50,701 nt of DNA from an uncultured Bacilli bacterium (GTDB lineage: Bacteria; Bacillota_I; Bacilli_A; RF39; UBA660), in NCBI GenBank assembly GCA_944371545.1, contig CALVXT010000001.1:1-50701 (forward strand). The letters are read 5' to 3'. The notes under the pieces are model-generated. The model was given only the letters and a program-made list of their open reading frames with translations, was not told the origin of the DNA and searched no databases. Every line of letters begins with the position of its first letter. The first letter of the stretch is position 1. Shown piece after piece: positions 9,649 to 45,709 of this stretch. Position numbers and translations under genes: made by a program.

Positions 9649-9659
9649 TAAGCATCTTT

Positions 9660-21457: not shown

Positions 21458-21460
21458 ATA

Positions 21461-27766: not shown

Positions 27767-27824
27767 AATATCACTTCCACTCGCGGGTATTATATCATTA
27801 TTTTGTTTATATGTAAAAAAAATT

Positions 27825-27838
27825 ATTTCCCGGGAAAT
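27825..27838. promoter_or_regulatory. Noc-binding-site (NBS) palindrome ATTTCCCGGGAAAT, intergenic mnmE-jag
   Basis: Exact match to the 14-bp B. subtilis NBS consensus. Embedded in the 22-bp palindrome AATTATTTCCCGGGAAATAATT (27821-27842). Confidence 0.75.
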
Positions 27839-27857
27839 AATTATTAAAAAAAACAGA

Positions 27858-28454
27858 TTACTCTGCTTTTATTACTATATGACGATGTGGTTCTTCTCCT
27901 TCACTTACTGTTGAAACTCCTTTAAAATTTGCTAATTTATTATGAATTATTCTTCTTTCGTAAGAGTTCATATCTTCTAAAATCACATCATTCTTTGTTT
28001 GTCTTACTTCTTTAGCCATTTTAATTGCTAGTCTTTCTAAGTTTGCAATTCTTTTTTCTTTATAATTTTCAACATCTAACACTATTTTAGGATGAACATG
28101 CCAATCCATATTTATTTTTGCTTTTACTAAAGTTTCTAAAGCTTTTAAAGTTTGTCCATTTTTTCCAATTAAAATTGGATTATTATCTGAGTACATAGTA
28201 ATATTAAATATTTCTTCATTAATACTCGTTTCAAACTTTACTTCTAGTCCTAATCCTTCAATGATTTCTTTTAAATAATTTTTTATTTCTTCTAGAATCT
28301 CTGGATAAGAAATTGCAGACACTTGATATAGTTTTCCTTTAAATAATCCGCCCTTTTTTTCTTCAGTTGTATAATAAATTTTGTCTGTATGAAGAAGATT
28401 TTTTGCTTCTTCTACTGCTTCAATTAACGTTTTAGCTTCTACTACCGTTGGCAT
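27858..28454 (-). CDS. jag: Jag/KhpB RNA-binding protein (KH + R3H domains)
   Basis: C-terminal R3H motif (ERRIIHNKL ... EPHRHIVI). Located downstream of yidC. Confidence 0.85.
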   Translation of the reverse strand: MPTVVEAKTLIEAVEEAKNLLHTDKIYYTTEEKKGGLFKGKLYQVSAISYPEILEEIKNYLKEIIEGLGLEVKFETSINEEIFNITMYSDNNPILIGKNGQTLKALETLVKAKINMDWHVHPKIVLDVENYKEKRIANLERLAIKMAKEVRQTKNDVILEDMNSYERRIIHNKLANFKGVSTVSEGEEPHRHIVIKAE

Positions 28455-28455
28455 T

Positions 28456-29484
28456 TTACTTCACTTCTTTCTTTTTCTTTTTTGTGTTATCCTTTTTTTC
28501 TTTATGTTTCACATCAATAACTTTTGGATCTTTTTGTTCTTTTGCTAAGATCTTTTTTATAACATAATTTTGAACTACTGAGAATCCATTAATTATAATC
28601 CAGTAAAATGCAATTGCAGTTGGTAAACTAAATGAGGCAATGGAAATACTTATAATCATAAACATTACCATAAAATTCATTTGTTTCATCATTTCATTAT
28701 TTTGATTACTTTTCATTGTATTTCTAAATGAAAGATATGTTGTTGCAACAATTAAGAAAATTAATACAATATAAATGTATTGCCCTTCTGCTAATCCTTT
28801 CCATGGTGTCATACCAAGATGCATACCAAATAATTCTCCTTCAAATATTGCTGGCACTTCATTAATTGCTGCTAAAAATGCAAAGAATAAAGGAATTTGA
28901 ATTAATGCTACTAAACATCCAGAAACTGGATTAATTTTGTATTTTTGGTAAACCATCATCGTTTCTTGACTTTTTGCCATCATTGAATCACTATCAGTTC
29001 TTCCAGCATATTTTTTTTCAATTCTCGCTATTTCAGGTTGAGCTTTTTGTAAATTTGTTGATTGTCTCATACTTTTAATTGATAATGGCATCAATACCAA
29101 ACGAATTAAAAGTCCAACAACCATTACGGAAATACCAAAATTGTTAAATAAAAATCCAACTTGTAAAATAATAAATGCTAGTGGTCTAACTAAAATAGCT
29201 TCCCATAAGCCATCATATTTATTTGAAGTTAAAGTAAATTCTTCACAGGTTGGTAACTCATTAACTGGTGTCTCCATTTGGTCTGCATGACTCTCATAGA
29301 TTTTATACAGTTCTGAATCTTTTTCTGGTTGACATAAAATATTTTTTTGAACACTTTGACCAGTCACTTCATTTACTAAAATATTCCCATTTTCATCTTT
29401 TAAATAATTATCTGATCCACAGCCACTTGTTAGAAAAATCATTCCTAACAAGATTAAAGCTAAAATTTTATTTTGTTTTTTCAT
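28456..29484 (-). CDS. yidC: YidC/SpoIIIJ/OxaA membrane protein insertase (lipoprotein form)
   Basis: Lipobox LTSGC, the 60-kDa inner-membrane-protein core (MMVYQKYKINPVSGCL), and a Lys-rich tail. Confidence 0.9.
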   Translation of the reverse strand: MKKQNKILALILLGMIFLTSGCGSDNYLKDENGNILVNEVTGQSVQKNILCQPEKDSELYKIYESHADQMETPVNELPTCEEFTLTSNKYDGLWEAILVRPLAFIILQVGFLFNNFGISVMVVGLLIRLVLMPLSIKSMRQSTNLQKAQPEIARIEKKYAGRTDSDSMMAKSQETMMVYQKYKINPVSGCLVALIQIPLFFAFLAAINEVPAIFEGELFGMHLGMTPWKGLAEGQYIYIVLIFLIVATTYLSFRNTMKSNQNNEMMKQMNFMVMFMIISISIASFSLPTAIAFYWIIINGFSVVQNYVIKKILAKEQKDPKVIDVKHKEKKDNTKKKKKEVK

Positions 29485-29833
29485 GTTTGCTCCTTTGTTT
29501 CATTAAATTTAGAAAGCTTTCTTGCATTTCTTTAAAGTTTAAATCACGAACACTTTCTTTCATTATTATAATATAATCTTCATTGTACTTCAAATCTTTT
29601 TTCCATTCATCTAAGATAAATCTCATTCTTCTTTTTAGCTTATTTCTAGTCACTGCGTTACCAAGTTTTTTTGATACAGCGATTCCATAATGTGGAAAAG
29701 TATATTTTCCTTTCCTTATATATATAGAAAAGTTTTTATTTTTTATATATCTTTCATTTTTAATGATTTCTGAAAATTCTTGATGAGATTTTATCATTTC
29801 TATTTTCTTCAAAAAAATGCTCCTTTCTTTCAT
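29468..29833 (-). CDS. rnpA: Ribonuclease P protein component
   Basis: Basic protein with the RNR-like motif (GNAVTRNKLKRRMR), between rpmH and yidC. An alternative start exists at 29797. Confidence 0.85.
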   Translation of the reverse strand: MKERSIFLKKIEMIKSHQEFSEIIKNERYIKNKNFSIYIRKGKYTFPHYGIAVSKKLGNAVTRNKLKRRMRFILDEWKKDLKYNEDYIIIMKESVRDLNFKEMQESFLNLMKQRSKHEKTK

Positions 29834-29834
29834 A

Positions 29835-29860
29835 TAAAAAAAGCCACATAAAAGATGTGG
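29835..29860 (-). terminator. Hairpin + T-run between rpmH and rnpA (terminator/attenuator)
   Basis: Minus strand reads CCACAT-CTTTT-ATGTGG, then C and T7. Confidence 0.6.
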
Positions 29861-29863
29861 TTT

Positions 29864-29986
29864 TTACTTACATAGTTTTTTACGTCCTTTTTTTCTTCTA
29901 CTTTTTAAAATGTTTGTTTCTTTACGAGCAAAAAATCCATGTTTCTTTGCTTTTTTACGTTTATTTGGTTGATAAGTTCCTACCAT
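29864..29986 (-). CDS. rpmH: 50S ribosomal protein L34 (40 aa), not in the ORF track
   Basis: Hand translation gives MVGTYQPNKRKKAKKHGFFARKETNILKSRRKKGRKKLCK. SD AGGAGGGAAG lies upstream. Canonical position next to rnpA and oriC. Confidence 0.9.
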   Translation of the reverse strand: MVGTYQPNKRKKAKKHGFFARKETNILKSRRKKGRKKLCK

Positions 29987-30072
29987 AGTTCTTCCCTCCT
30001 TTTTCCTAAAGCTCCCTTATTATAATATTAAAATCTAGAAAAAGTCAACAATTAGTGTATTATATAGGAAAT

Positions 30073-30230
30073 TGTGAATAATTGTCCACATATGCTATAA
30101 GCATTTTTTTCTTTATTTTCGTCACTTTTTCTTCAGTTATAAACATATTCACAGTATGTGGATAATTTATTTTCACATTATCCACTAATTCACATTAAAA
30201 ATTTTTTTGAAATGTTGATAATGTGGATAA
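30073..30230. promoter_or_regulatory. oriC left module: DnaA-box cluster upstream of dnaA
   Basis: Boxes against consensus TTATCCACA/TGTGGATAA: 30073 TGTGAATAA, 30082 TTGTCCACA, 30157 TGTGGATAA (perfect), 30178 TTATCCACT, 30222 TGTGGATAA (perfect). Confidence 0.85.
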
Positions 30231-30367
30231 GTGTATTTTTTTCTTTTATTATCTTGGTTTCTTTTGTTGATAAGTTGTGAATAGTGTGTTAGTATACATT
30301 TTAGTCTTTTAAATTGAAAGAAAAAAGTGTAGAATATTGTTGACAAATGTTAAAGCGGGGTGGTTTC

Positions 30368-31756
30368 ATGGGCGAAAAAGATCTTTGGCAATCTGTATTA
30401 GACGAGATATATCCAGAAGTTAATACCGCTTCTTTTCATGCTTGGTTTAATGATTTGAAGTTGATTAAAATACAAAATAATAAGGTTTTTATTCAAGTGC
30501 CTATGGAAATACATAAACGTATTTTAACCCAAAATTATTATACTTTATTAGATGATGCTTTTTATAAAATAACAAATCATAATTATGAATTTGAATTTTT
30601 ATTAAAAGAAGAAGTTGAAACTGAAGAGGAAAAAGAAACAGTCAATGTGGATAATGTGGATAACTTAGTAAATGTTGTTAATACACCGACTGTTACAGTT
30701 GAAAGAGAATGGGAATCAAACTTAATTCCTGATTTAAATTTTGATAATTATATAGTAGGGGACTCCAATAGACTGGCTAAAACGGCTGGAATGATTGTTG
30801 CTGAACAACCTGGAAAAGTTCATAATCCCTTATTTATATATGGTAAAAGTGGGTTAGGGAAGACTCATTTAATGCATGCAATAGGGAATTATATAGCTAC
30901 TCACTCTAATAAAAAGGTTTTATACACAACTAGTGAAATGTTTAAGGATGATTATATTAATATTATTAGTAATGAAAATAAAGGAAATAATATTCAGGTT
31001 GCTTCAGATTTTAAGAAGAAATATCGTGAAGTTGATGTGTTAATAATTGATGATATTCAATATTTAGTTGGAGCAGAGAAGACTCAACAGGAATTTTTCC
31101 ATACTTTTAATGCATTACATCAAGCAAATAAACAAATAATTATTAGTTCTGATCGTAGTCCTGATGACTTAAAATTATTAGAAGAGAGATTACGTAGTCG
31201 TTTTATGTGGGGACTACCTGTGGATATTTATCCACCGGATTTTGAACTTCGATGTAAAATTATTCGTTCAAAATTAAAAAATACTTCCATTGTTAATAAG
31301 ATTGATGAAAATGTTATTGAATACATTGCTAATAACTGTCAAAATGATGTTAGATTCCTTGAAGGGGCGGTAAATAGACTACTTGCATATACTGCAATGA
31401 TTGTACCAGAAGTTGTTGATTTAAACTTTGCTATTGAAGCTTTAGCGGACTTTGTGAATCATAATATTTATACACGTAGTAGTATTGAAGGAATTCAAAA
31501 AGCTGTCGCAGATTATTATAAAATCACTGTCGATGATTTAAAGGGAAAGAAAAGAAGCGCAAATATTGCTTATCCTAGGCAAATAGCTATGTATTTATCA
31601 AGAACACTTACTGAGGAAAACTTAAATCGTATCGGTTTAGAATTTGGTGGAAGAGATCATTCGACAGTTATCCACGCTTGTGATAAAATAACAAGTGATT
31701 TAAAGAAAAATCCTGCATTAGAACAGCAATTGAAGGAGATTCAAAATAAAATGTAA
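30368..31756 (+). CDS. dnaA: Chromosomal replication initiator protein DnaA
   Basis: AAA+ motifs (GKSGLGKTHL, LIIDDIQ) and the domain IV DnaA signature (IAYPRQIAMYL, GGRDHSTV). ATG 30368 lies behind GGGGTGG; the track ORF opens at 30347. Confidence 0.95.
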   Translation: MGEKDLWQSVLDEIYPEVNTASFHAWFNDLKLIKIQNNKVFIQVPMEIHKRILTQNYYTLLDDAFYKITNHNYEFEFLLKEEVETEEEKETVNVDNVDNLVNVVNTPTVTVEREWESNLIPDLNFDNYIVGDSNRLAKTAGMIVAEQPGKVHNPLFIYGKSGLGKTHLMHAIGNYIATHSNKKVLYTTSEMFKDDYINIISNENKGNNIQVASDFKKKYREVDVLIIDDIQYLVGAEKTQQEFFHTFNALHQANKQIIISSDRSPDDLKLLEERLRSRFMWGLPVDIYPPDFELRCKIIRSKLKNTSIVNKIDENVIEYIANNCQNDVRFLEGAVNRLLAYTAMIVPEVVDLNFAIEALADFVNHNIYTRSSIEGIQKAVADYYKITVDDLKGKKRSANIAYPRQIAMYLSRTLTEENLNRIGLEFGGRDHSTVIHACDKITSDLKKNPALEQQLKEIQNKM

Positions 31757-31855
31757 TGTGGATAATTTTTATTGATGTGAATAATTATGCACATGAAAAT
31801 TCGACAAAATCTTTAAGTTTTAAAGGAATTTTAAGAGTTATGCACATTATCCACA
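31757..31855. promoter_or_regulatory. oriC right module: DnaA-box cluster between dnaA and dnaN, followed by an AT-rich stretch
   Basis: Boxes: 31757 TGTGGATAA (perfect), 31776 TGTGAATAA, 31785 TTATGCACA, 31838 TTATGCACA, 31847 TTATCCACA (perfect). A nearly pure A/T stretch follows at 31856-31890 and is a candidate unwinding element. Confidence 0.8.
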
Positions 31856-31905
31856 TCATTAATAATATGAATATATAATTATAAAATAAGAAAGAGGGAA
31901 AGATT

Positions 31906-33024
31906 ATGAAATTTGCAATTGAGAAAAACATATTATTAGAAAATTTAAATAATGTTGTTAGAGGGATATCAACAAAGAATGTTATTCCTGTATTAAATGG
32001 TATTAAATTTGAATTAAAAGAGGATGGTTTAACTTTAACAGCTAGTGATAGTGAATTAACTATAGAATCTTTTATTGAAAGTAAGTTAATACGTAATATA
32101 GAAAGTACAGGTACTATTATTATTAGTAGTAAATATATTTTAGATATTATTCGTAAAATGCCTAGTGATATTATTAACTTTGAAATGATGGATAGTTTAA
32201 AAATTAAAATTTATTCAGATTTTAATCAATATAATTTAAATTGTTTAGATCCAACAGAATATCCAGCTATTAAGTTGATAACTCATAAAGATCCTATTGT
32301 AATTAAAGCGGATGTTTTAAAAGAATTAATAAATCAAACTTCTTTTGCTATATCTACTCAAGAATTACGCCCTATATTAACTGGTTTAAATATGAAAATT
32401 AATGGAGATTTATTCGAAGTTATTGCTACAGATTCTTATCGTTTGGCTAAGAAAAATATTAAATTAGATACTCCTGTAGATACTGATGTAAACATTGTTA
32501 TTCCAGGAAAAAATATTACCGAGTTAGAGCATATTTTAGTTGATGATGAAGAAGTTTATATGAATGTATTTAATAATCGAGTATTATTTCAATATAAAAA
32601 TATTAAATTTCAAACAAATATTTTATCAGGAAGTTATCCAAATACCTCTAATTTAATTCCAACAGAATTTGAAATTATTGTACAAACAAAGAAAAGTGAA
32701 TTTATGGGAGCTGTAGATCGTGCTGCTTTATTGACTCAAGGTAAAGATAAAAATATTATAAAAATGAAGATTGAAAATAAAGAAATGATTATTAATTCAT
32801 ATGCTTCTGAAATAGGTAAAACAGAGGAGAGAGTAGCTATAGATACGGATGAAAAGTCAACAATTGATATTTCTTTCAGTGCTCGTTATATGATGGATGC
32901 TTTAAAAACTATTAAAGATGAAGATATTTTAATTCTTTTAAATAATGATGTTAAACCTATAGTACTTAAATCTTTAACAGATGAAAGTTTAATTCAATTA
33001 ATTTTACCTATAAAAACATACTAA
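31906..33024 (+). CDS. dnaN: DNA polymerase III beta sliding clamp
   Basis: Full-length beta-clamp similarity (ATDSYRLA, ILPIKTY C-terminus), downstream of dnaA. Confidence 0.95.
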   Translation: MKFAIEKNILLENLNNVVRGISTKNVIPVLNGIKFELKEDGLTLTASDSELTIESFIESKLIRNIESTGTIIISSKYILDIIRKMPSDIINFEMMDSLKIKIYSDFNQYNLNCLDPTEYPAIKLITHKDPIVIKADVLKELINQTSFAISTQELRPILTGLNMKINGDLFEVIATDSYRLAKKNIKLDTPVDTDVNIVIPGKNITELEHILVDDEEVYMNVFNNRVLFQYKNIKFQTNILSGSYPNTSNLIPTEFEIIVQTKKSEFMGAVDRAALLTQGKDKNIIKMKIENKEMIINSYASEIGKTEERVAIDTDEKSTIDISFSARYMMDALKTIKDEDILILLNNDVKPIVLKSLTDESLIQLILPIKTY

Positions 33025-33025
33025 G

Positions 33026-33046
33026 ACTGTCAAATGGCAGTTTTTT
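33026..33046 (+). terminator. Rho-independent terminator after dnaN
   Basis: ACTGTC-AAAT-GGCAGT hairpin followed by T6. Confidence 0.65.
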
Positions 33047-33152
33047 GTTTTAAAAATTAATAAATTTAAAATTTGTTTTCTTTTTTTCGACATTTTTTTT
33101 CTCTTTTATATGGTAGGGTAAGAACAATTTTCATATGAATGGGGGAAAAATT

Positions 33153-33614
33153 ATGCAAACACAATATGAAATTAATGATGAAACTATGGCAATTTTAACT
33201 ATTGATAAAAATTATTCAGAAGTTTATGAGATGAATGACCATTATATTGTTGAACAGGCTTCAAATAAAATTATGGAAGATAGTTGTCGTTATTTCGGGA
33301 GTTCTTTAGAGGGGAGAAGGAAAGGTACGGAATATATGATTGGAGTTAACTATAAAGCTCCAATTATTGTGGAAGAATCTAAAGAAATTATTTTTTTTCC
33401 AACTTCTAGTACTCGAGAAAATAGTAATTGGATTCGTTTAAAATATATTAAATCTTATTACCGTGATGGTGATGTCATTTTTATTGTTTTTGAAAATGGT
33501 ACAAAAATTGCTATAAAAACGTCTTATGGAATTATCGATAATCAAGTTTTACGAGCTACGCGGTTAGAAAGTGCTTTAAGAGGGCGAAAAACATCAAAAA
33601 AAACTGTTATGTAG
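33153..33614 (+). CDS. comK: ComK-family competence transcription factor
   Basis: Matches to B. subtilis ComK: SCRYFGSSLEGRRKGT vs SCRFFGSSYAGRKAGT, KAPIIVEESKEIIFFPTSS vs KPPIMVDPSNQIFLFPTLS, and NQVLRATRL vs NQVYRTAWL. ATG 33153 lies behind GGGGGA. Confidence 0.85.
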   Translation: MQTQYEINDETMAILTIDKNYSEVYEMNDHYIVEQASNKIMEDSCRYFGSSLEGRRKGTEYMIGVNYKAPIIVEESKEIIFFPTSSTRENSNWIRLKYIKSYYRDGDVIFIVFENGTKIAIKTSYGIIDNQVLRATRLESALRGRKTSKKTVM

Positions 33615-33637
33615 GCTTCTTTTGTGATATAATGTAT

Positions 33638-33672
33638 ATAGGTATAGGAGTATTAGTATACCTATATTTTTT
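33638..33672 (+). terminator. Rho-independent terminator after comK
   Basis: 9-bp stem ATAGGTATA / TATACCTAT with a 10-nt loop, then A and T6. Confidence 0.65.
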
Positions 33673-33700
33673 CTATAAATAAAAATTAAGGGGCAAAAAT

Positions 33701-34810
33701 ATGAGGATTGATGTTTTAAAGTTATATAATTTTAGAAATTATAATCGGTTAACTATATCTTTTCATCCAAATCTTAATCTTATTTATGGAAAGAATGGTT
33801 CTGGAAAAACAAATTTAGTTGAAGCTATTTATGTTTTAGCTTTAACAAGAAGTTTTCGCTTAGTAGGGGATAAAACGCTTATTTTAGATACAACTTCGAT
33901 GTGTAAGATTGAGGGAACTGTTTTTAATACATATAGTACAAATTATCAAATTTTGCTGAGTAAAGAAGGAAAAAAAGTTCAAATCAATCATGATAAAGTT
34001 GCTAAAATATCAGATTATGTTTCTAAAATTCCTATTGTTTTGTTTCATCCAGATGATTTAAGATTTATTAAAGATACTCCAAGTACCCGGAGAAAGACAA
34101 TAAATATTTCTATTTCTTTATTGGATTTGCCTTATTTACGTTATTTAAATCTTTATAATAAGTTATTGAAACAAAGAAATGCTTATTTAAAGCAAATGAG
34201 TGTTAATGGAAATTCTTCTTCTGATTATCTTACTATTTTGACAGATAAACTTATTCAGTATGGATGTTATATTCATAAGAAAAGACAAGAATTTTTAGTA
34301 AAAATTAATTCTTATATTTCTTCTTTTTATGAGAAAATTACAGGAATTAAAGGTTTAACATTAAAATATGTTTCTTCTTATAATGATTTAAATAGCGATG
34401 AAATAAGGAATTTGTATGAAAAGTCATTATCTAAGGATTTAACTTTTGGAAAAACCGCTATTGGAGTTCATATGGATGATATAAAGTTTTATTTGAATGA
34501 TAAAGATTTAAAAGAATACGGAAGTGAAGGTCAGCAAAAAAATGCGATTATTGCTTATAAATTTAGTGAAATAGAGGTATTTAAAGAATGTAAGGGATAT
34601 TATCCAATATTAATATTAGATGATTTGTTTAGTGAATTAGATGAGGAAAAAGTACAAAATATTTTAAGTTTATTAAAAACTGAAATTCAAACTTTTATTA
34701 CGACAACGGATGTGGATAAGCTTTCTTTTTTACCTTATCTTTCTTATAAACAAATTCATATTCAGAATGGAAAAGTAGTGGAGGAGAGTGAACATGAAAG
34801 AAGAAAATAA
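33701..34810 (+). CDS. recF: DNA replication and repair protein RecF
   Basis: Walker [14 protein letters not shown], the SMC-like signature SEGQQK, and Walker [12 protein letters not shown]. Confidence 0.95.
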
Positions 34811-36713: not shown

Positions 36714-36723
36714 GAGGTAAACT

Positions 36724-39168: not shown

Positions 39169-39186
39169 TAAACTGATTCTTTTTTT
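39154..39186 (+). terminator. Rho-independent terminator at the end of gyrA
   Basis: Stem GAATCAG (39154-39160) / CTGATTC (39173-39179), with the stop codon in the loop, then T7. Confidence 0.6.
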
Positions 39187-39187
39187 A

Positions 39188-39203
39188 TGTTTCACGTGAA
39201 ACA
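39188..39203. promoter_or_regulatory. parS 1
   Basis: TGTTTCACGTGAAACA, a perfect 16-bp palindrome. Confidence 0.9.
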
Positions 39204-39234
39204 TTAGTATTTTGAATTTAATGTTTATAACCAA

Positions 39235-39250
39235 TGTTTCACGTGAAACT
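39235..39250. promoter_or_regulatory. parS 2
   Basis: TGTTTCACGTGAAACT, with one terminal mismatch. Confidence 0.85.
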
Positions 39251-39293
39251 ATATTTAATTTGTTTTAAATATCTTGAATGTGTATAAGTTATA

Positions 39294-39309
39294 TGTTCCA
39301 CGTGAAACA
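39294..39309. promoter_or_regulatory. parS 3
   Basis: TGTTCCACGTGAAACA, identical to the canonical B. subtilis parS. Confidence 0.9.
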
Positions 39310-39470
39310 TATCTAAGTTTTACTGATTTTATTTATATGTAATAAAATCAATTTGTTAATAATTATCTTTGTTTTAATATATTATTTTGAATTAATATCA
39401 TTTTTATATAAGTATATAATTTGTTTTTTTCTTCAATATTATTTATTTTAAATGAAGTGTTTATAACTCA

Positions 39471-39486
39471 TGTTCCACGTGAAACA
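39471..39486. promoter_or_regulatory. parS 4
   Basis: TGTTCCACGTGAAACA, identical to the canonical B. subtilis parS. Confidence 0.9.
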
Positions 39487-39565
39487 TATATGTTTTTTTA
39501 TGAAATTATTTTTTTATAAATATTTTTTATAAATTTCTTTTTTTTGTTTCCACTGTTGATAACAA

Positions 39566-39581
39566 TGTTTCACGTGAAACG
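39566..39581. promoter_or_regulatory. parS 5
   Basis: TGTTTCACGTGAAACG, with one terminal mismatch. Confidence 0.85.
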
Positions 39582-39788
39582 TTGGATAAAATTTATTTTA
39601 AAATTTTGTTTATTTTTTACTAAAAATTTTAATACTTTTTTATATTATAGTGAATATGTGTATAAGTTTTATATTTTTCGTTAGTAAATAAGAATATTTC
39701 TTTATTATAAAAATGATTCAATCATTTATTATTTTTTTGTAATAATAATTTGCTTCGTTTTTTTAGTTGTGAAAATTTCAAAATAAAT

Positions 39789-39802
39789 ATTTCCCGGGAA
39801 AT
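39789..39802. promoter_or_regulatory. Noc-binding-site palindrome ATTTCCCGGGAAAT inside the parS array
   Basis: Exact 14-mer, located 22 nt upstream of parS 6. Confidence 0.75.
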
Positions 39803-39824
39803 AATTTTGATGTTTATAACCCGA

Positions 39825-39840
39825 TGTTTCACGTGGAACA
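39825..39840. promoter_or_regulatory. parS 6
   Basis: TGTTTCACGTGGAACA, the reverse complement of the canonical TGTTCCACGTGAAACA. Confidence 0.9.
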
Positions 39841-39935
39841 TATGAAAAAATGTTTTTTTTTGAAAGTTTATAACTATTTTTAGAAAAAATTAAGACATCT
39901 TTTAAAAAAATCATTATTTATTTGGAATTTCACAA

Positions 39936-39951
39936 TGTTTCACGTGAAACG
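39936..39951. promoter_or_regulatory. parS 7
   Basis: TGTTTCACGTGAAACG, with one terminal mismatch. Confidence 0.85.
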
Positions 39952-39998
39952 TTATAAAATATGTTGAAACTATGATTCTTTTTTGATAAAATTAATAC

Positions 39999-40069
39999 GT
40001 GCAACAAATATATTGTAATCTGGTCAGGATCGGAAGATAGCAGCCACGTCAATCCCTGTTTGTGTGCAC
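39999..40069 (+). ncRNA. ffs: Small (4.5S-type) signal recognition particle RNA
   Basis: Conserved domain IV core CUGGUCAGGAUCGGAAGAUAGCAGCC. It is closed by the terminal helix GUGCA...UGCAC and followed by T7 (40070-40076). Confidence 0.85.
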
Positions 40070-40089
40070 TTTTTTTATGGAGGAAAATC

Positions 40090-40506
40090 ATGGATAGTTC
40101 TTATATAGATGTTTGTATTGAGGAAGCTAAACTTAGTTATCAACAAGGAGATGTACCCATTGGGGCTGTAATCGTTCAAAATGGTAAGATTCTTGCTAAA
40201 GGGCATAATACTCGAGAATTTAATCACGATATTTTAGGACATGCTGAGATAAATGTTATCAGAGAGGCATCTAAAATCTTGAAAAGATGGAATTTAGCTG
40301 ATTGTGAGCTTTATGTAACTTTAAAACCTTGTTCAATGTGTACTGAAATTATCAAACAATCTCGAATTTTAAAGGTTTTTTACTTACTTGATAAATTGGA
40401 TTATAAAAAAGAGTTTTCTAAAAGTGAATTTTTTAAAATTGAAAGTAGTAAAAACGAACAAATGTATCATAAAATGATTAGCGATTTTTTTAAAGATAAA
40501 AGGTAA
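40090..40506 (+). CDS. tadA: tRNA-specific adenosine(34) deaminase
   Basis: CDA zinc motifs HAEINVI and PCSMC. ATG 40090 lies behind GGAGGA; the track ORF start at 40060 would overlap the SRP RNA. Confidence 0.9.
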   Translation: MDSSYIDVCIEEAKLSYQQGDVPIGAVIVQNGKILAKGHNTREFNHDILGHAEINVIREASKILKRWNLADCELYVTLKPCSMCTEIIKQSRILKVFYLLDKLDYKKEFSKSEFFKIESSKNEQMYHKMISDFFKDKR

Positions 40507-40567
40507 GCTTTATGATATAATGATATTTAGAAATTATTAGATATTTTTTTATGAAAGCGGGGTTTTT

Positions 40568-42202
40568 ATGGAGTATAAGGTTTTGTATCGTAAGTATAGG
40601 CCAACATGTTTTAAAAATATTGTAGGTCAAGAATATACAGTAAAGATGCTTCAAAATGCTATTATCCACAATAAAATTGCTCATTCGTATTTATTTACTG
40701 GTCCACGTGGTACAGGTAAAACGAGTACAGCTAAGGTTTTTGCCAAGACAATTAATTGTGAACATTTAGTTGATGGCGAAGCTTGTGGAAAGTGTAATGC
40801 TTGTTTATCTTTTGAACAAAGTCCTGATATAATTGAAATTGATGCTGCTTCTAATAATGGAGTGGATGACATTCGTGAGCTTATTAATAATGTGAAGGTA
40901 GCTCCAACAGAAGGAAAGTATAAGATTTATATTATTGATGAGGTTCATATGATGACAACAAGTGCTTTCAATGCTTTGTTATTAACGTTGGAGGAACCTC
41001 CAGCTCATGCTATTTTTATAATGGCAACTACGAATGTTGAGAGTGTTCCGATAACTATTTTATCTCGTTGTCAACGTTTTAATTTTAAGAAATTTTCTCT
41101 TGATGATTTAATCAAGCAAATTCGTTATGTTTGTGAACAAGAGAAGATATCTATAACTGATGAAGCCATCACAGAAATAGCTTATTTATCTGAAGGGGGA
41201 ATGCGTGATGCTTTAAGTTTACTTGATCAGTTATCTTCTTTGGGAGAAGAGATTACTATTGATAGTATTTTAACTAATTATGGCTCTATTTCTATGAAAT
41301 TTATTCGTGATTTATTAGAAAATGTTGCAAATCATAACATTTCTTTGGTTCATGAATCTTTACAAGAATTAGCAAATACATCATCAGATTATAAAGTGTT
41401 TATTAAAAAAATTATTCAACAGTTGTCTGATATTGCTGTATCTATAGCAACGGATACTTATACAGGAAATTTTAGTTATTCACAGATAAAAAATATTATA
41501 TTTGAGTTGAATGATTGTTTAAATAAAATTAATATTAATATTAATCCGTTTGTTTTAATTGAGATGATTTTGTTAGGCTCTTATGAAGAAAAAAATGTGA
41601 AAAATGTGGATAACTACGCTGAAAATGTGCATAAGATATTAGAAAAAAGTATTGAAGAAGAGAAAAAGGAGCAAAATTCAGTAAAAATAGAAGAAAAAGT
41701 TGATGATTCTTCTAATGAAAATAAATTGCAAGAGGAAGAGTATATAAGAAAGATGGTTAAAATTCGTGTGAACAACTGTTTTTCTGAGGCTAAAAAAGAA
41801 TCATTGAAATTATTTCAGTCAGTTTGGGAAAAAGTTCTTGATGATGAAAATGTTACCCCAAATATTAAATCTTTTGTTTTGGATTCAACTGTTGTAGCAG
41901 CCTCTGATAAATATTGTATTTTGTCTTCTAAATTGGAAAGTACGGTTTATTTAATTAATAAGAATGTTGATAAGATTTCTTTAGAATTGCAATCTTATTT
42001 TGAAAATCCTGTTTATTTTGTTTCATTAAGTGAGGCAGAATGGAAAAAGGAAAAACAGGAATATGCTAAAACGATTAAAAATGGTGGAAAATATAGTGTT
42101 ATATCTGAATCAGAACTTGAAGAATTAAAACCTAAAGTTCAGTCAGAACTTGAAGAAATTGCCACAAATGTGTTTAATCGTGATAAAATAGAAATGGTTT
42201 AA
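40568..42202 (+). CDS. dnaX: DNA polymerase III subunit gamma/tau
   Basis: Walker A GPRGTGKTS, the Zn module CGKCNAC, and DEVHMMT and SRCQRF motifs. Confidence 0.95.
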   Translation: MEYKVLYRKYRPTCFKNIVGQEYTVKMLQNAIIHNKIAHSYLFTGPRGTGKTSTAKVFAKTINCEHLVDGEACGKCNACLSFEQSPDIIEIDAASNNGVDDIRELINNVKVAPTEGKYKIYIIDEVHMMTTSAFNALLLTLEEPPAHAIFIMATTNVESVPITILSRCQRFNFKKFSLDDLIKQIRYVCEQEKISITDEAITEIAYLSEGGMRDALSLLDQLSSLGEEITIDSILTNYGSISMKFIRDLLENVANHNISLVHESLQELANTSSDYKVFIKKIIQQLSDIAVSIATDTYTGNFSYSQIKNIIFELNDCLNKINININPFVLIEMILLGSYEEKNVKNVDNYAENVHKILEKSIEEEKKEQNSVKIEEKVDDSSNENKLQEEEYIRKMVKIRVNNCFSEAKKESLKLFQSVWEKVLDDENVTPNIKSFVLDSTVVAASDKYCILSSKLESTVYLINKNVDKISLELQSYFENPVYFVSLSEAEWKKEKQEYAKTIKNGGKYSVISESELEELKPKVQSELEEIATNVFNRDKIEMV

Positions 42203-42224
42203 AAGAAAAGGAGAGATAATCGTT

Positions 42225-42521
42225 ATGAATATGCAAAGTATTATGGCACAAGCTCAAAAAATGCAAAGAGATTTACAAAAAAAGAAGGAAGAAATTAATG
42301 CTCAATTATTTCCCGGGAAATATGAGTTTGTTGAAGTGACGTTAAATGGTAAGAAAGAAATGGTAAGATGTAAGATTGATAAAGAGCAATTGGATGCTTC
42401 AGATATTGAACTTTTAGAAGATTTTATTGTATTAGCAACAAAAGATGCAATTCAAAAAATTGATAAAGAATTTCAAGCAAAAATGGGACAATATGCTGGA
42501 ATGTTAGATGGTTTGATGTAA
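42225..42521 (+). CDS. ybaB: YbaB/EbfC-family nucleoid-associated protein
   Basis: 98 aa, with the MQKMQRDLQKKKEE N-terminus typical of the family. Located between dnaX and recR. Confidence 0.9.
   Translation: MNMQSIMAQAQKMQRDLQKKKEEINAQLFPGKYEFVEVTLNGKKEMVRCKIDKEQLDASDIELLEDFIVLATKDAIQKIDKEFQAKMGQYAGMLDGLM
42308..42321. promoter_or_regulatory. Noc-binding-site palindrome ATTTCCCGGGAAAT inside ybaB
   Basis: Exact 14-mer. It encodes LFPGKY in the ybaB frame. Confidence 0.7.
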
Positions 42522-42522
42522 G

Positions 42523-43128
42523 ATGGGAGTTTATCCAAAAAATTTTGAAGCATTAGTTGAATCTTTAAAGAAATTTCCAGGTGTTGGTGAAAAAAGCGCT
42601 GAAAGAATGGCCTTATCTATATTGGATATGTCTTTGGAAGATATTGAGTTGATGAGGGAAGCTCTTTTAAATTGTAAGAAGGATTTACATCCTTGTTCCG
42701 TTTGTGGTTATTTAACAGATCAAGAAGTTTGTCCTATTTGTTCTGATGAATCAAGAGACAAAAATTTAATTTGTGTTGTTGAGGATTATAAAAGTGCTTT
42801 TGCTTTTGAAAAAGTAGGAAATTTTAAAGGTGTTTATCATATTTTAAATGGTCTTATTTCCCCAATGCTTAATAAAGGAGCTGAAGATATTAATCTATCT
42901 TCTTTGGGGCGACGAATTGAGAATTTAAAACATCCTGAACTTATTTTGGCTTTAGGTAGTTCACTTGAAGCTGAAACTACTATTTTATATATTAAAGAAA
43001 TTTTTAAATCTAAAGATGTTACAATAAGTCGACTTTCGCATGGAATTCCTATGGGAGCTGAGATTGAATACTTAGATATGATGACTTTAGATAAAGCCTT
43101 GTTTGATCGAAAAGTTATATCGGAATAA
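42523..43128 (+). CDS. recR: Recombination protein RecR
   Basis: HhH motif (LKKFPGVGEKSAERMA), C4 zinc finger (CSVCGYLTDQEVCPIC), and Toprim domain. Confidence 0.95.
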   Translation: MGVYPKNFEALVESLKKFPGVGEKSAERMALSILDMSLEDIELMREALLNCKKDLHPCSVCGYLTDQEVCPICSDESRDKNLICVVEDYKSAFAFEKVGNFKGVYHILNGLISPMLNKGAEDINLSSLGRRIENLKHPELILALGSSLEAETTILYIKEIFKSKDVTISRLSHGIPMGAEIEYLDMMTLDKALFDRKVISE

Positions 43129-43143
43129 AAATCCGATTTTTTT
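43119..43143 (+). terminator. Rho-independent terminator after recR
   Basis: ATCGGA-ATAAAAA-TCCGAT followed by T7. Confidence 0.6.
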
Positions 43144-43165
43144 CATATCTTTTATTAGGAGATAA

Positions 43166-43360
43166 ATGCCTATGTTAAAGAAAATCTATGTTGTAATAAA
43201 GAAAATTGTTTTTGCTTTTTTAATGCTTTATGGATTAAATTATTTTATTTCATCTTTACAAATTTATATACCCATAAATGTTATTACTGTTGGTGTAGTT
43301 AGTTTATTAGGTATTCCGGGGCTTTCTTCTTTAATTATTTTATATTTTATAGTAAAATAA
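43166..43360 (+). CDS. bofA: Pro-sigma-K processing inhibitor BofA
   Basis: IYIPINVITVGVVSLLGIPG matches B. subtilis BofA IHVPINLVTTAISGILGIPG. Same position after recR. Confidence 0.8.
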   Translation: MPMLKKIYVVIKKIVFAFLMLYGLNYFISSLQIYIPINVITVGVVSLLGIPGLSSLIILYFIVK

Positions 43361-43376
43361 TCTTGGGTGAGAAATT

Positions 43377-44222
43377 GTGGATAACAAAATTTTTCAAGAA
43401 CTTGTTCATGCTTATCATGAGAATAAATTAGCTCATGCTTTTTTGATTGAAACAAATGATAAAGAAAAATGTTATCAAACGGTTATTCAATTTTTAAAAG
43501 TTTTAAATTGCGCGGAGGAATTTAAAGACAATTGTACATCTTGTAATTTATGTCATCTATTTGATACAAATGCTTTACCTAGTTTGCTTACCATTTATCC
43601 TGATGGTCAGAATATAAAAAAAGAACAAATTTTAGAATTAAAAAGAGCATTTCAAACAAAACCTGTTTTTTCTAAATATAATATGTATGTAATTATGGAT
43701 GCCGAAAATTTAAATTCTTCAAGCGCGAATACTATGTTAAAATTTTTAGAAGAACCTGAAGAGTATATTATAGGATTTTTTATTACTAATAATAAAGAAA
43801 ATGTTATTGATACCATTAAAAGTCGTTGTCAGATACTTTTAGATTATTATGATGTAGATGAAATGGGAGATATTCCTTTAGAATATCAGGAGATGGCTTT
43901 GCATTATGCTTTAGAGCTTGAAACGACTCATGAAGATACTTTACTTTATAATAAAGATACTTTGCTTCCTTTTATAAAAGATAAAAAAAGTGCTTTTTGG
44001 TTATTTAAATCGTTATTAGAACTTTATGAAAATTTATATTATGCTTCTTTACATATAAGTGAGTTAAAAGAACAAAATGAAGGATTTCGATTTTTATTAA
44101 AAAAGGATTCGAATTATTTTTTGAAAAAAATTCATGTAATTATGGAAATTTTGGATGAATTAAATTATAATTTAAATATTTCTTTAGTTTTGGATCGGTT
44201 TGTATTAGAAGAAGGTGAATAG
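43377..44222 (+). CDS. holB: DNA polymerase III delta-prime subunit
   Basis: HAFLIE, the Cys cluster (CTSCNLC), and the SRCQ motif. GTG start. Confidence 0.85.
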   Translation: MDNKIFQELVHAYHENKLAHAFLIETNDKEKCYQTVIQFLKVLNCAEEFKDNCTSCNLCHLFDTNALPSLLTIYPDGQNIKKEQILELKRAFQTKPVFSKYNMYVIMDAENLNSSSANTMLKFLEEPEEYIIGFFITNNKENVIDTIKSRCQILLDYYDVDEMGDIPLEYQEMALHYALELETTHEDTLLYNKDTLLPFIKDKKSAFWLFKSLLELYENLYYASLHISELKEQNEGFRFLLKKDSNYFLKKIHVIMEILDELNYNLNISLVLDRFVLEEGE

Positions 44223-44223
44223 A

Positions 44224-45015
44224 ATGAATGTTTATGGTGTAGTTTTCCAAGATCGTGGTAAAGTTTATTATTTTAATGGACAACATTTACGAATTCCTAA
44301 TCGAGTTACTGTTATTGTAGAAACAGAAAAAGGTGAGCAATTTGGAAGAGTTGTTAGTAAGTTGGATAAAGAAAAAGCTTTAAAATATAAGAACGAATTA
44401 AAAAATGTATTGCGAATTGCTACAAAAAAAGATTATGAGCAATATTTGAAAAATTTGAAGGATGCCGATGAAGCTTTAAAAAAGGCACGTGATTTTAGTC
44501 GGGAATTAAATTTGAGTATGAATTTTATTGATGCTACTTTTACTTTTGACCGTAAGCAATTGCTTTTTAATTTTTTTGCTGATGATAGAGTAGATTTTCG
44601 TGAACTTGCTAAGAAATTAGCTGGAGTATATCATACGAGAATTGAGTTGAGACAAGTTGGTGCTCGTGATAAGGCTTTTCATGTTGGTGGAATAGGTATT
44701 TGTGGTCGAGGTTTATGTTGTGCTAATTATTTAACACATTTAGAATCGGTAACTATGAATATGGCCAAAAATCAAAATTTGGCTTTAAATCCTTCAAAAA
44801 TTAATGGGGCTTGTGGAAGATTGTTGTGTTGTTTAGCTTATGAAGATGAACAATATGTTGAGGCTTCTAAAGATATGCCAAGTGTTGGTGAGGATGTAGT
44901 GACTCCTTATGGAAAAGGTAAAGTTAAAAGTGTTGATATTTTGAATCGAAAGTATAAAGTTTTAATAAATGATGAACTAAAGGAAATTTGCCTAGATGAT
45001 GAAAAAGCAGCTTAA
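44224..45015 (+). CDS. ricT: PSP1-domain protein RicT/YaaT
   Basis: PSP1 C-terminal domain with a Cys-rich CGRGLCCANYL ... CGRLLCCLAYE. Located downstream of holB, as in B. subtilis. Confidence 0.9.
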   Translation: MNVYGVVFQDRGKVYYFNGQHLRIPNRVTVIVETEKGEQFGRVVSKLDKEKALKYKNELKNVLRIATKKDYEQYLKNLKDADEALKKARDFSRELNLSMNFIDATFTFDRKQLLFNFFADDRVDFRELAKKLAGVYHTRIELRQVGARDKAFHVGGIGICGRGLCCANYLTHLESVTMNMAKNQNLALNPSKINGACGRLLCCLAYEDEQYVEASKDMPSVGEDVVTPYGKGKVKSVDILNRKYKVLINDELKEICLDDEKAA

Positions 45016-45709
45016 TTGGTTGTTTGATTATCCAAATTTAAAAATATATCAATATCAAGAAGGGTTTAAGTTTTCTTTAGATTCAATTTTGTTAGCAGAA
45101 TTTGCTACGATTCGAAAATCAGATGAAAAAATACTTGATTTATGTACTGGAAATGGAGTAATACCTATTCTATTACATTTTAAATATCAAAAAAATATAG
45201 TAGGAGTAGAACTTCAAAAAGAAATTGCCAGTTTAGCTAGAGATTCAGTAAAGGAAAACGGTATGGAAGATGCTATTTCCATTATTGAGGATAATGTTTT
45301 AGAGTTGAAAAATTATTTCCCGGGAAATAATTTTGATGTTGTTCTTTCAAATCCTCCTTATTTTAAGTTTCATCATCCGAATTTTGTGAATCAAAATTCT
45401 TTAAAAAGTATCGCTAGACATGAAGTTACTATTTGTTTAGAACAATTAATTGAAATGGCTAGTTATTTACTAAAAAATAAAGGAAGGTTTTATTTAGTAC
45501 ATATTCCAGAGCGATTGGATGAAATTATTGTTTATGCAAATAAGTATGGATTTGGAATAAAAAAAATTCAATTTATTCATTCTAAAATATCTGAGCCACC
45601 TATCATTGTATTGGTAGCTTTAGTAAAAAATGGTAGATTTGGTTGTCGAATCTGCCCTCCACTTTCTATTGAGGGAGTAGAGTCTTATCAAAATTTATTT
45701 AAGAATTGA
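44996..45709 (+). CDS. SAM-dependent methyltransferase, YabB/TrmN6-like (tRNA m6A37)
   Basis: ILDLCTGNGVIPI SAM motif and NPPY (LSNPPYF). Synteny with B. subtilis yabB. Confidence 0.8.
   Translation: MMKKQLNWLFDYPNLKIYQYQEGFKFSLDSILLAEFATIRKSDEKILDLCTGNGVIPILLHFKYQKNIVGVELQKEIASLARDSVKENGMEDAISIIEDNVLELKNYFPGNNFDVVLSNPPYFKFHHPNFVNQNSLKSIARHEVTICLEQLIEMASYLLKNKGRFYLVHIPERLDEIIVYANKYGFGIKKIQFIHSKISEPPIIVLVALVKNGRFGCRICPPLSIEGVESYQNLFKN
45315..45328. promoter_or_regulatory. Noc-binding-site palindrome ATTTCCCGGGAAAT inside the methyltransferase gene
   Basis: Exact 14-mer at the centre of the 26-bp palindrome AAAATTATTTCCCGGGAAATAATTTT. It encodes YFPGNN. Confidence 0.7.

Follow-up and report, generated by a model that had tools for sequence, protein, structure and literature searches.

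The window, that is the whole stretch of 50,701 nucleotides analysed here, carries origin genes in the order rnpA-dnaA-dnaN-recF-gyrB-gyrA. A DnaA-box scan delineates one cluster upstream of dnaA (30073-30230; dnaA itself at 30347-31756) and another between dnaA and dnaN (31757-31855), and the GC skew changes sign at about 30 kb. The oriC region thus bounded (30073..31855) is the reference point for the distances given below. A parS array of seven sites, the ParB centromere, occupies 39188..39951 and includes all parS-like sites of the assembly at up to one mismatch. A 410-aa Noc-clade ParB paralogue with ParB_N and HTH_ParB domains is encoded on the minus strand at 18552..19784, 11 kb from oriC and close to rsmG within the group of origin genes; it is the CTP clamp presumed to bind the Noc-binding sites (NBS).

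The window contains exactly four copies of the 14-bp palindrome ATTTCCCGGGAAAT, at 27825, 39789, 42308 and 45315, each as part of the 16-bp palindrome TATTTCCCGGGAAATA (strand not applicable, as for the parS array and oriC). The first NBS (27824..27839), an exact match, is intergenic: in the jag-mnmE gap, the jag stop precedes it by 20 bp and the mnmE start follows at 59 bp, and dnaA lies about 2.5 kb to its right. The second (39788..39803) falls among the arrayed parS sites of the gyrA-tadA spacer, 22 nt ahead of the parS at 39825. The third (42307..42322) belongs to codons L-F-P-G-K-Y of ybaB and the fourth (45314..45329) to codons Y-F-P-G-N-N of a TrmN-like methyltransferase gene, about 3.0 kb further on, a distance conserved in 11 species or more. 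A fifth copy stands upstream of metG on the small contig C137 and is origin-proximal by synteny. Mapping agrees with the first-pass annotation, which had described an intergenic site at 27825, a site 22 nt from parS at 39789, FPGK in ybaB and FPGN in the methyltransferase. The flanks it quoted are correct at three sites, whereas the AATT flank at ybaB begins at 42304 and not at 42305.

The four exact 14-mers reported in that annotation are borne out by exact matching and by their absence from 100 dinucleotide-preserving shuffles of the window. Base composition predicts about 1.2e-4 copies of ATTTCCCGGGAAAT per window, in agreement with the former estimate of about 1e-4 per 50 kb, and no further site was found in the window at up to two mismatches. 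The 1.23-Mb draft assembly holds five exact NBS (the four of the window and that of C137), no one-mismatch variant and four two-mismatch matches, a number at or below chance level, and five of its six CCCGGG occurrences lie within NBS. The suggested genome-wide count of the 14-mer and its one-mismatch variants therefore yields a distribution that is not random, all exact copies being origin-proximal and none degenerate. Pooling this genome with 15 species of the genus gives 57 sites, in which the 16-bp core is invariant and is flanked by preferences for T at -2 (75%), A at -3 (78%) and A at -4 (66%), with no conservation past position -5. As flank preference ends by -5, the supported consensus is about 22 bp; of the 18-26 bp extension proposed earlier, the 26-bp limit is unsupported by these sites. 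The CCGG "loop" bases are invariant in the pool, which displays no compensatory stem changes. Flanks are unrelated beyond +/-5 bp, so that no repeat element is involved, and the NBS lie outside any mobile repeat of the kind raised as an alternative.

The five NBS are located at roughly -2.5, +9.4, +12, +15 and +20 kb from dnaA, a span of about 25 kb. The origin region thereby holds 5/5 sites of an assembly that is 86% complete (164 contigs) and whose missing 14% may carry more; the same pattern is seen in relatives with a completeness of 90% or more. Exact NBS are present in 22 of the 24 species of the genus, with 1-7 copies each, on a single contig in 16 species; in the other six, whose assemblies are fragmented, they are split over two or three contigs. 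Fifteen mapped species share the syntenic places jag|mnmE, parS array, ybaB, trmN and metG. The jag|mnmE gap is occupied also in G018, G009, G001, G003 and G004, NBS and parS are separated start to start by 26-59 bp in G013, G018, G009 and G019, and even the most divergent species keep one NBS on each side of oriC. Family-wide, the exact 16-mer is found in 100/121 genomes and 99/120 genera, and a reversed control pattern in 0/121. Every family genome with a mapped NBS context has its sites near oriC; in nine other genera their distance to the noc-like gene is 15-26 kb, except in G060, where sites and gene are on different contigs. Tandem arrays of 7-20 NBS occupy gene-free spacers. Two family members in which only ParB was detected have one exact 14-mer each all the same, and a few with a Noc-like gene have no site at up to one mismatch. 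In the genomes mapped, NBS are restricted to the origin region. The earlier picture of a functional Noc-NBS system at high local density around oriC stands as to functional-looking sites, but the arrangement is not that of B. subtilis, as the origin region holds them all. Likewise, the juxtaposition of NBS and parS, then called unusual, is real and goes beyond a curiosity, since both are interleaved in tandem arrays in three other genera (G163, G074 and G087).

Selection acts on the DNA of these sites. The ybaB site is present in 11/15 species with a third-position identity of 100% over its 6 codons, versus 0.76 for the rest of the gene, and the trmN site in 12/16 genomes with 100% versus 0.69. 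The proposed comparison of orthologous codons, for which synonymous alternatives exist, accordingly finds the third positions of both sites invariant in 11-12 species, as against 21% and 10% for codons elsewhere in the two genes. CCC, GGG and CCG, which are rare codons, are retained at these sites. At the ybaB site, G009 has a synonymous CCT and divergent species encode FVGK, FKGV or FEGH; at the trmN site, divergent species encode FPRE, YNEG or FSKE. In the G163 array, NBS and parS are kept among repeat units that share only about 70% similarity.

The ParB|Noc split in the tree has a support of 100/100 and places the long proteins of the family on the Noc side. The specificity residues of the 410-aa protein are of the Q173/K179/N184/R201 type and, as Q133/K139/N144/R161 of its own sequence, are invariant in 31 homologues. 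Residue 184 is N, whereas K is almost invariable in Noc; Noc proteins elsewhere that score above the cut-off are likewise QKNR. Q173 and R201 read NBS bases, and a single K at 179 or 184 is enough (Jalal et al. 2020, PMC7383237). The Noc-type specificity residues announced in the first-pass annotation are confirmed, being of the Q173/K179/R201 type. GERR and ENxQR, the CTP motifs, do not vary among homologues, and a Noc-like C-terminal dimerisation domain is preceded by an acidic disordered linker of about 140 aa with an invariant NKFFNxLEDE motif, modelled by AF2 at low confidence. No N-terminal membrane helix is present in this protein. Its residue 5 aligns with residue 26 of Geobacillus Noc, the best PDB match; a stop lies 8 codons upstream of the start here, and in-frame stops lie 1-26 codons upstream in 23 homologues. 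As the long N-terminal extension is also lost elsewhere in the Noc clade, absence of the helix alone is no proof of a new function. The protein scores 278 bits against TIGR04285, below the curated NCBIfam Noc cut-off of 315. A canonical Soj-ParB operon is found on contig C75, where the ParB next to soj has R/M/S/G residues of parS type and an N-terminal peptide, METKRKALGRGLEQLF, of the ParA-stimulating LG(R/K)GL type; the 410-aa protein has neither such a peptide nor an adjacent ParA. It had been treated as the ParB homologue and as Noc-like: it does belong to the Noc clade, but is not the sole ParB homologue, scores below the cut-off and fails two defining Noc features. These are the N-terminal membrane-targeting helix and a scattered site distribution.

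The five palindromes are probably loading sites for a CTP clamp of Noc type that is restricted to the origin and acts alongside ParB-parS. We infer binding, CTP clamping and spreading by analogy with ParB and Noc, and likewise a downstream function, with the 410-aa protein expected to nucleate at the sites. A dimer would recognise the 16-bp site via Q173/R201-type contacts, take CTP, close into a clamp and slide off the site. Overlapping spreading zones may then coat one domain including oriC and the parS array, and the output would pass via the conserved motifs of the acidic linker toward the membrane or a protein partner. Because it lacks both an N-terminal membrane helix and a ParA-stimulating peptide, the protein is probably not a chromosome-wide membrane tether, and is more likely to mark or organise the origin domain beside ParB. 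Noc thus seems to have taken on a new role, as a protein of the origin region, in an uncultured gut lineage, since its sites are confined to the origin beside the ParB centromere and the membrane anchor is lacking. No published description of an origin-only NBS-parS arrangement was found in the literature.

The closest relative is the Noc-NBS system of B. subtilis and S. aureus (Wu 2009; Adams 2015; Pang 2017, PMC5540599; Jalal 2020/2021, PMC7383237, PMC8429893), with which the present one shares an identical 16-bp site, the clade, the Q173/K179/R201 code, intact CTP motifs, the C-terminal domain and a gene near rsmG. It differs by five perfect sites in about 25 kb, whereas classical systems spread around 40 or more sites, most of them imperfect, across half to two-thirds of the chromosome, as well as by the missing N-terminal helix, the sub-cut-off TIGR04285 score, the acidic linker with short conserved motifs and the sites beside or interleaved with parS. 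In B. subtilis, NBS are scattered over the origin-proximal two-thirds, and S. aureus has 41 loci within +/-700 kb with spreading of 8-10 kb per site (PMC5540599). Complete genomes with an above-cut-off Noc have 5-6 sites, for the most part imperfect, at distances of hundreds of kb to Mb. ParABS centromeres (Spo0J/ParB-parS) resemble the system in a few high-quality palindromic loading sites clustered beside oriC, tandem arrays in sister genera, the ParB-family CTP-clamp fold and the spreading expected from it. However, the binder here is a Noc paralogue devoid of the LG(R/K)GL peptide and of an adjacent ParA, and in this genus several sites lie within coding sequences, up to 10 kb from the parS array. 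A dedicated DNA-binding protein with a handful of specific origin-proximal sites is also found in the origin-anchoring systems RacA-ram (B. subtilis sporulation), RicO-ricS (S. aureus; bioRxiv 10.64898/2026.03.06.710092) and RocS (S. pneumoniae). The present system is a plausible functional analogue of these and may position or organise the origin, perhaps via DivIVA or the membrane; the genome does encode DivIVA-domain proteins. The proteins of those systems have unrelated folds, their sites extend over hundreds of kb (about 700 kb for ricS), and the C-terminal amphipathic membrane helix is a feature of RicO and RocS, with no such function shown for the 410-aa protein.

A miniaturised form of classical nucleoid occlusion, in which NBS DNA is tethered to the membrane to block the Z-ring and a 1.3-Mb genome without Min needs few sites, is unlikely, although clade and NBS-type residues are those of Noc. 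MinD scores above the cut-off in 0/25 relatives, so some spatial division regulator is needed. Within the linker, amphipathicity peaks at the motif NKFFNFLEDE (muH 0.71-0.75), which is similar to the N-termini of Noc in G032 (MGLFDFLG) and B. subtilis (FSRFFGLGE) and might be a membrane helix that has moved. However, it carries little net charge, runs straight into an acidic EDE stretch and has a low AF2 confidence. Occlusion in B. subtilis depends on the N-terminal helix (Adams 2015, as cited in PMC8429893), which is absent here, and classical function needs sites across the origin-proximal half to two-thirds (PMC5540599, PMC8429893), whereas NBS here cover <3% of the chromosome and would leave most of the nucleoid unprotected. 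Interleaving with parS, moreover, has no part in the classical model.

Rather less probable is a role in replication initiation, the Noc-type domain modulating DnaA or origin firing, with NBS positioned to deliver the protein to oriC, as in S. aureus, where Noc restrains initiation and minor peaks flank dnaA (PMC5540599). NBS on both sides of oriC (-2.5 kb and +9 to +20 kb), one per side being kept even in the most divergent species, and DnaA-box-like words preceding parS sites in the array would fit. However, no NBS lies inside the DnaA-box clusters, other genera concentrate their NBS in the parS array about 9 kb off, away from oriC, and the S. aureus effect is not simply one of site binding, since B. 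subtilis Noc bound the same sites without complementation. Such control would be compatible with an origin-restricted clamp, not exclusive of it.

Transcriptional elements in place of chromosome-organisation sites, either operators of a KorB-like repressor or terminator/attenuator hairpins, are very improbable. KorB-OB of RK2 offers a precedent as a ParB-family CTP clamp repressing transcription at long range from several palindromes, some beside promoters, but KorB (PDB 8qa8) is a distant match (E 4e-12) and the genome has no evident KorA-like partner. The sites at 27825 and on C137, two of the five, are directly upstream of genes (mnmE and metG), the third intergenic one being in the gyrA-tadA spacer; the first follows the jag stop and precedes a T-run on that strand, and the C137 site has a T-box terminator on one side and the ribosome-binding site of metG on the other. 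Conversely, two sites are in-frame in genes here, with further cases among relatives (metG, mfd), the hairpins predicted have A-U stems and little stability (-4.9 to -8.4 kcal/mol, the first site having -4.9), the loop is invariant without compensatory stem changes, and the long arrays in gene-free spacers would be senseless for operators or terminators.

That another factor than the Noc-like protein explains the sites, as ParB sites, CCCGGG restriction-modification relics or mobile-repeat pieces, is hardly credible: the core is the SmaI/XmaI hexamer and a recurrent one-mismatch CCCAGG could reflect decay at CpG, but these readings are contradicted by the R173/G201 parS specificity of ParB, by unrelated flanks, by syntenic positions across species, by the empty reversed control and by 16 invariant bp, far above a 6-bp restriction-modification target.

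The 14-mer of the Noc-binding site (NBS), ATTTCCCGGGAAAT, occurs exactly four times in the window, at 27825, 39789, 42308 and 45315 as the first-pass annotation had recorded, and in none of 100 dinucleotide-preserving shuffles. No further NBS is found in the window when two mismatches are permitted. All four sites are exact copies of the 16-bp palindrome tATTTCCCGGGAAATa, of which the genome holds five. Across 57 sites the 16-mer TATTTCCCGGGAAATA is invariant, flanking T and A included; positions -2 to -4 favour T, A and A, and no position is conserved beyond. An extended consensus of about 22 bp is thus borne out, and the proposed length of 26 bp is not. The placements assigned to the four sites also hold: 27825 is intergenic, in the jag/mnmE gap; 39789 lies 22 nt before a parS site; 42308 falls within ybaB, where it codes for FPGK; and 45315 falls within the TrmN-like methyltransferase gene, where it codes for FPGN.

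The sites surround the replication origin. The window has a G+C content of 24-32%, its GC skew changes sign at about 30 kb, and clusters of DnaA boxes are present at 30073-30230 and 31757-31855. The gene order is rsmG-mnmG-mnmE-jag-yidC-rnpA, then dnaA-dnaN-(comK-like)-recF-gyrB-gyrA-[spacer]-tadA-dnaX-ybaB-recR-holB-ricT-trmN-pth-mfd. Relative to dnaA, the NBS are located at about -2.5, +9.4, +12.0 and +15.0 kb. Seven parS-like sites are found in the assembly, every one of them within 39188-39951, in the gyrA-tadA spacer.

The chromosome-wide distribution to be looked for on the B. subtilis model is not seen. Indeed, the genome (an assembly of 1.23 Mb in 164 contigs, 86% complete) contains five exact matches, no one-mismatch match and four two-mismatch matches, the latter at the chance rate or below. 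The hexamer CCCGGG occurs six times genome-wide, five of them within NBS. The fifth NBS is carried by another contig, C137, between a T-box terminator and the ribosome-binding site of metG, in the gene order metG-tatD-yabE. In relatives, the order mfd - spoVT-like - NBS - metG is found about 5 kb past the trmN site. This synteny would place all five NBS, on two contigs that are not joined, in a single interval of about 25 kb around oriC. Perfect NBS are thereby limited to less than 3% of the chromosome, and the scattered sites typical of Noc are not found, as the draft assembly contains no degenerate NBS outside these oriC-proximal 25 kb or so. At the contig end (50701), an IS66-type (DUF6444) fragment at 50186-50647 (+) terminates the window; at that point relatives run on to the metG T-box leader, the NBS and metG, a continuation that C137 has.

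Two other origins of the palindromes were considered. Terminator hairpins are kept as a minor rival and disfavoured, as the predicted folds are weak and sites lie in frame within genes. A mobile repeat or chance is ruled out, because the flanks hold no information past +/-5 bp, with no conservation outside positions -2 to -4, and the positions are syntenic.

Within the genus, exact NBS (one to seven per genome) are found in 22 of the 24 other species. In 16 of these 22, all NBS are held by a single contig over a span of 10-25 kb; the other six have fragmented assemblies, in which the NBS are distributed among two or three contigs. When 15 species were mapped against the proteins of the window, the sites came up at recurrent places: jag|mnmE, the gyrA-tadA parS array, ybaB, trmN (one or two sites), and metG, both upstream of it and in its 5' part. 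In the divergent species G001, G003 and G004, mfd carries a site instead, and even these three retain one NBS on either side of oriC.

The first-pass annotation had asked whether the coding sites would be conserved at orthologous codons despite synonymous alternatives, and this is what is observed in ybaB and trmN. The third positions of the five to six site-bearing codons are identical in 11-12 species, for a mean third-position identity outside the site of 0.76 in ybaB and 0.69 in trmN, where 21% and 10% of the other codons, respectively, are invariant; orthologous NBS of related species are non-independent observations. The codons imposed by the site, CCC GGG or TTC CCG GGA, are rare G/C-ending ones, and a synonymous CCT abolishes the NBS in one species. 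In divergent species, other amino acids stand at the same place (FVGK, FKGV and FEGH in ybaB; FPRE, YNEG and FSKE in trmN). Because third positions are invariant, rare codons are kept and divergent species have other residues, the constraint at coding NBS acts on the DNA and not on the protein. These sites offer a clean case of a DNA-binding site dictating codons, and even amino acids, within housekeeping genes.

Two ParB_N proteins are encoded by the genome, so that the Noc-like protein is not the sole ParB homologue, contrary to what had been assumed. The canonical one is encoded on another contig (C75) by a soj-parB locus followed by mscS-like and DUF951-like genes; this 296-aa ParB has an N-terminal ALGRGLEQLF peptide, an adjacent soj, and R/M/S/G at the four positions known to decide parS versus NBS specificity (Jalal et al. 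2020, PMC7383237). The Noc-like protein (410 aa, 18552-19784, minus strand) has the ParB/Noc fold by its ParB_N (PF02195, 2.5e-34) and ParB-type HTH (PF17762, 7e-33) domains. Residues 1-200 of its AF2 model are confident, its closest PDB match is Geobacillus Noc (7ng0/7nfu, 1e-57), and the CTP motifs GERRxKA and ENIQRR are intact. The specificity residues had been called Noc-type, and are so: Q133, K139, N144 and R161, equivalent to Q173, K179, N184 and R201 in Caulobacter ParB numbering, are invariant in 31 homologues. Q173 reads adenine 1 and R201 cytosine 6, while a single K at 179 or 184 is enough (Jalal 2020, PMC7383237). The same QKNR combination is found in the Noc proteins of three genomes from other families (G068, G038 and G118), which score above the cut-off of the NCBIfam Noc family TIGR04285.

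A tree built from 42 ParB and Noc domains separates ParB from Noc with 100/100 support. The six long proteins from the window's family fall together in it, their clade (100/99) branching off on the Noc side by a long stem (0.7). By this phylogeny, the Noc-like protein groups with Noc and not with ParB. From its specificity residues and its co-occurrence with the sites, it is likely the NBS binder. As to gene neighbourhood, about 3.5 kb (19936-23313) are inserted between the noc-like gene and rsmG, with ORFs for a 377-aa protein, a 134-aa protein, a 520-aa HD-domain-like protein and an 85-aa fragment. The distance from noc-like gene to parB is 2-3 kb in nine sister genera, and 9-34 kb or across different contigs in four others; in the window's genus, soj-parB has been relocated to the other contig.

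Noc and its NBS constitute the textbook nucleoid-occlusion system of Gram-positive bacteria and rank among the few CTP switches known, and the classical function is thought to need both sites over most of the chromosome and an N-terminal membrane helix. The Noc-like protein departs from this on several points. Its TIGR04285 score is 278 bits against a cut-off of 315, with an alignment covering profile positions 1-215 of 255, which is partial because of a linker insertion; all 16 family members tested (16/16) fall below this cut-off. No N-terminal amphipathic membrane-targeting helix, which in Noc has about 10 aa and precedes helix alpha2, is found, the ParB_N core beginning five residues after the start. 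An in-frame stop lies 8 codons upstream of that start, and 1-26 codons upstream in 23 homologues. Since residue 5 pairs with residue 26 of Geobacillus Noc, the alignment indicates that both N-terminal helices described for Noc (PMC8429893), the membrane-targeting alpha1 and alpha2, are missing. Short N-termini are also found in some other Noc-clade lineages, so that helix loss alone is not unique to the family.

The insertion is an acidic linker of about 140 aa that separates the DNA-binding domain from a Noc-like C-terminal domain. It is disordered in AF2, where the full-protein model gives the linker low confidence and just a short helix at 262-270. Near-invariant motifs punctuate it: NKFFNxLEDE, IEVLDD, PF(L/F)F and DPMDSVIKLDPNY. 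Hydrophobic-moment analysis ranks NKFFNFLEDE as the linker's most amphipathic stretch; it is not cationic. It resembles some Noc N-termini, such as MGLFDFLG in G032, one of the genomes compared, and the FSRFFGLGE N-terminus of B. subtilis Noc.

The sites depart from the classical pattern as well. In B. subtilis, NBS are dispersed across the two-thirds of the chromosome nearest the origin, and in S. aureus 41 NBS loci lie within +/-700 kb, with spreading over 8-10 kb each (PMC5540599). Two complete genomes with an above-cut-off Noc have 5-6 NBS (at most one mismatch), most of them imperfect, across hundreds of kb to Mb, and genomes of this kind hold 0-1 copies of the exact 14-mer. The contrast is thus one of perfect and clustered sites here versus degenerate and scattered sites there, and not one of exact-copy number. 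While classical Noc combines the helix with widespread sites, the window's lineage has the same clade and DNA code with both features gone and its sites beside parS. A few clustered palindromes by oriC (about -2.5 to +20 kb) is a feature that the NBS share with a chromosomal ParABS centromere. However, the binder of such a centromere has a ParA-activating peptide and a ParA partner, whereas neither an N-terminal peptide of this kind nor an adjacent ParA was found for the Noc-like protein.

The same pair of proteins is found throughout the family: in 16/16 sampled genera, the window's own included, a ParB of about 298 aa is encoded alongside a long Noc-like protein, whose open frame spans 369-594 aa. 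Of 121 genomes, 100 (from 99 of 120 genera) contain the exact 16-mer, typically in 1-5 copies and at most 20, and none contains a reversed control pattern. As in the genus, the NBS are oriC-proximal in those members of the family in which they were mapped. The 21 genomes that lack the 16-mer are draft MAGs, as is every genome of the lineage. The long noc-like gene is retained in 17 of them, and 14 have the 14-mer either exact or with a CCCAGG-type change only; when such a 14-mer and the noc-like gene are on one contig, the two are no more than about 25 kb apart. Four of the 21 draft MAGs are apparently ParB-only, two of which still have one exact 14-mer. The co-occurrence of gene and NBS in the family is therefore high, not clean.

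In three genera, NBS and parS strictly alternate in tandem arrays of the tadA-dnaX spacer, at positions 9281-10189 of locus L080 (G163:C3), 8424-8862 of L082 (G074:C1) and 9155-9827 of L081 (G087:C1). The G163 array is made of a 114-bp unit repeated 6.8 times at about 70% identity, and that of G074 of a 140-bp unit; in both, the spacers have drifted but the two palindromes persist. Within the family the window's genus stands out, with a single NBS left in the parS array and the rest dispersed, several of them within genes. The largest NBS array seen is that of G204, a genome with 20 exact 16-bp NBS (G204:C1:89139-90103 and G204:C53), 12 of them at a period of about 79 bp. A one-mismatch variant, ATTTCCCAGG/CCTGGGAAAT, in which the central CpG becomes CpA/TpG, is met repeatedly, within arrays and close to noc-like genes (genomes G163, G074, G227, G259, G251 and G248); it may represent CpG decay by mutation or else a half-site variant that is tolerated.

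The window's genome has a separate canonical ParABS system whose parS array sits among the NBS. What lies downstream of the conserved sites and their likely binder is inference. By analogy with ParB and Noc (PMC8429893, PMC7383237), a Noc-like dimer would nucleate at an NBS, bind CTP, close and slide. If the protein spreads by a few kb from each site, as S. aureus Noc does, the sites at -2.5, +9.4, +12, +15 and about +20 kb would be linked into one continuous domain over oriC and the parS array.

Three outputs of such a domain may be envisaged. Origin organisation or anchoring together with ParB is judged the best candidate, in view of the close, conserved link to parS and of the lost membrane helix; a locally restricted occlusion and a control of initiation, as in S. 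aureus, are the other candidates. No MinD above the family cut-off is found in the window's genome and 24 relatives (0/25), the matches of about 90 bits being ParA/Soj-like. Most of these 25 genomes encode a pair of DivIVA-domain proteins, the longer measuring about 142 aa and the shorter being GpsB-like. A broader proposal, put forward tentatively and with less than even confidence, concerns the whole family of uncultured, low-GC gut Bacilli (more than 100 genera): there, Noc may have given up chromosome-wide membrane tethering and division inhibition to serve as a second centromere protein restricted to the origin. It would be loaded from a small set of perfect NBS that flank oriC and interdigitate with parS, ParB and Noc would form a mixed origin domain of two clamps, and the amphipathic NKFFNxLEDE would act as a relocated anchor, tying this domain either to the membrane or to a protein of the pole or of division (e.g., DivIVA), in cells devoid of Min.

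The lineage provides a natural contrast, since the Noc clade and its DNA code are under strong selection there without the two classical features. This could make testable other roles of Noc/ParB-type clamps, the sharing of one DNA stretch by paralogous clamps (clamps that slide after being loaded only a few helical turns from each other should collide), and the positioning of origin and septum in small-genome, Min-less bacteria. A full-text literature search returned classical Noc work and origin anchors (RacA, RicO and RocS), and none on origin-restricted NBS, such a Noc linker or mixed parS/NBS arrays. The window itself shows dispersed coding-sequence NBS with codon-level proof of selection on DNA, an NBS left of oriC, the Noc-clade placement and the N-terminal comparison.

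Some further features of the region were observed. A ComK-family ORF (33135-33614, plus strand; PF06338, 1e-36) occupies the dnaN/recF gap within the core origin gene cluster, a position kept in the genus and the family. Most parS of the window's array are preceded by a DnaA-box-like TGTnnATAA word (TGTTTATAAC, TGTGTATAAG or TGTTGATAAC; 39222-39830), the word and parS forming a composite unit of about 30 bp. In three species of the genus, parS recurs at a strict 40-41-bp period, with 5-14 visible sites, counts that are partial as two of the three arrays end at contig ends (L063, G020:C2, 3413-3950; L071, G006:C18, 16338-16799; L072, G012:C26, 17126-17301). Compared with these arrays, the seven parS of the window are irregularly spaced and far sparser.
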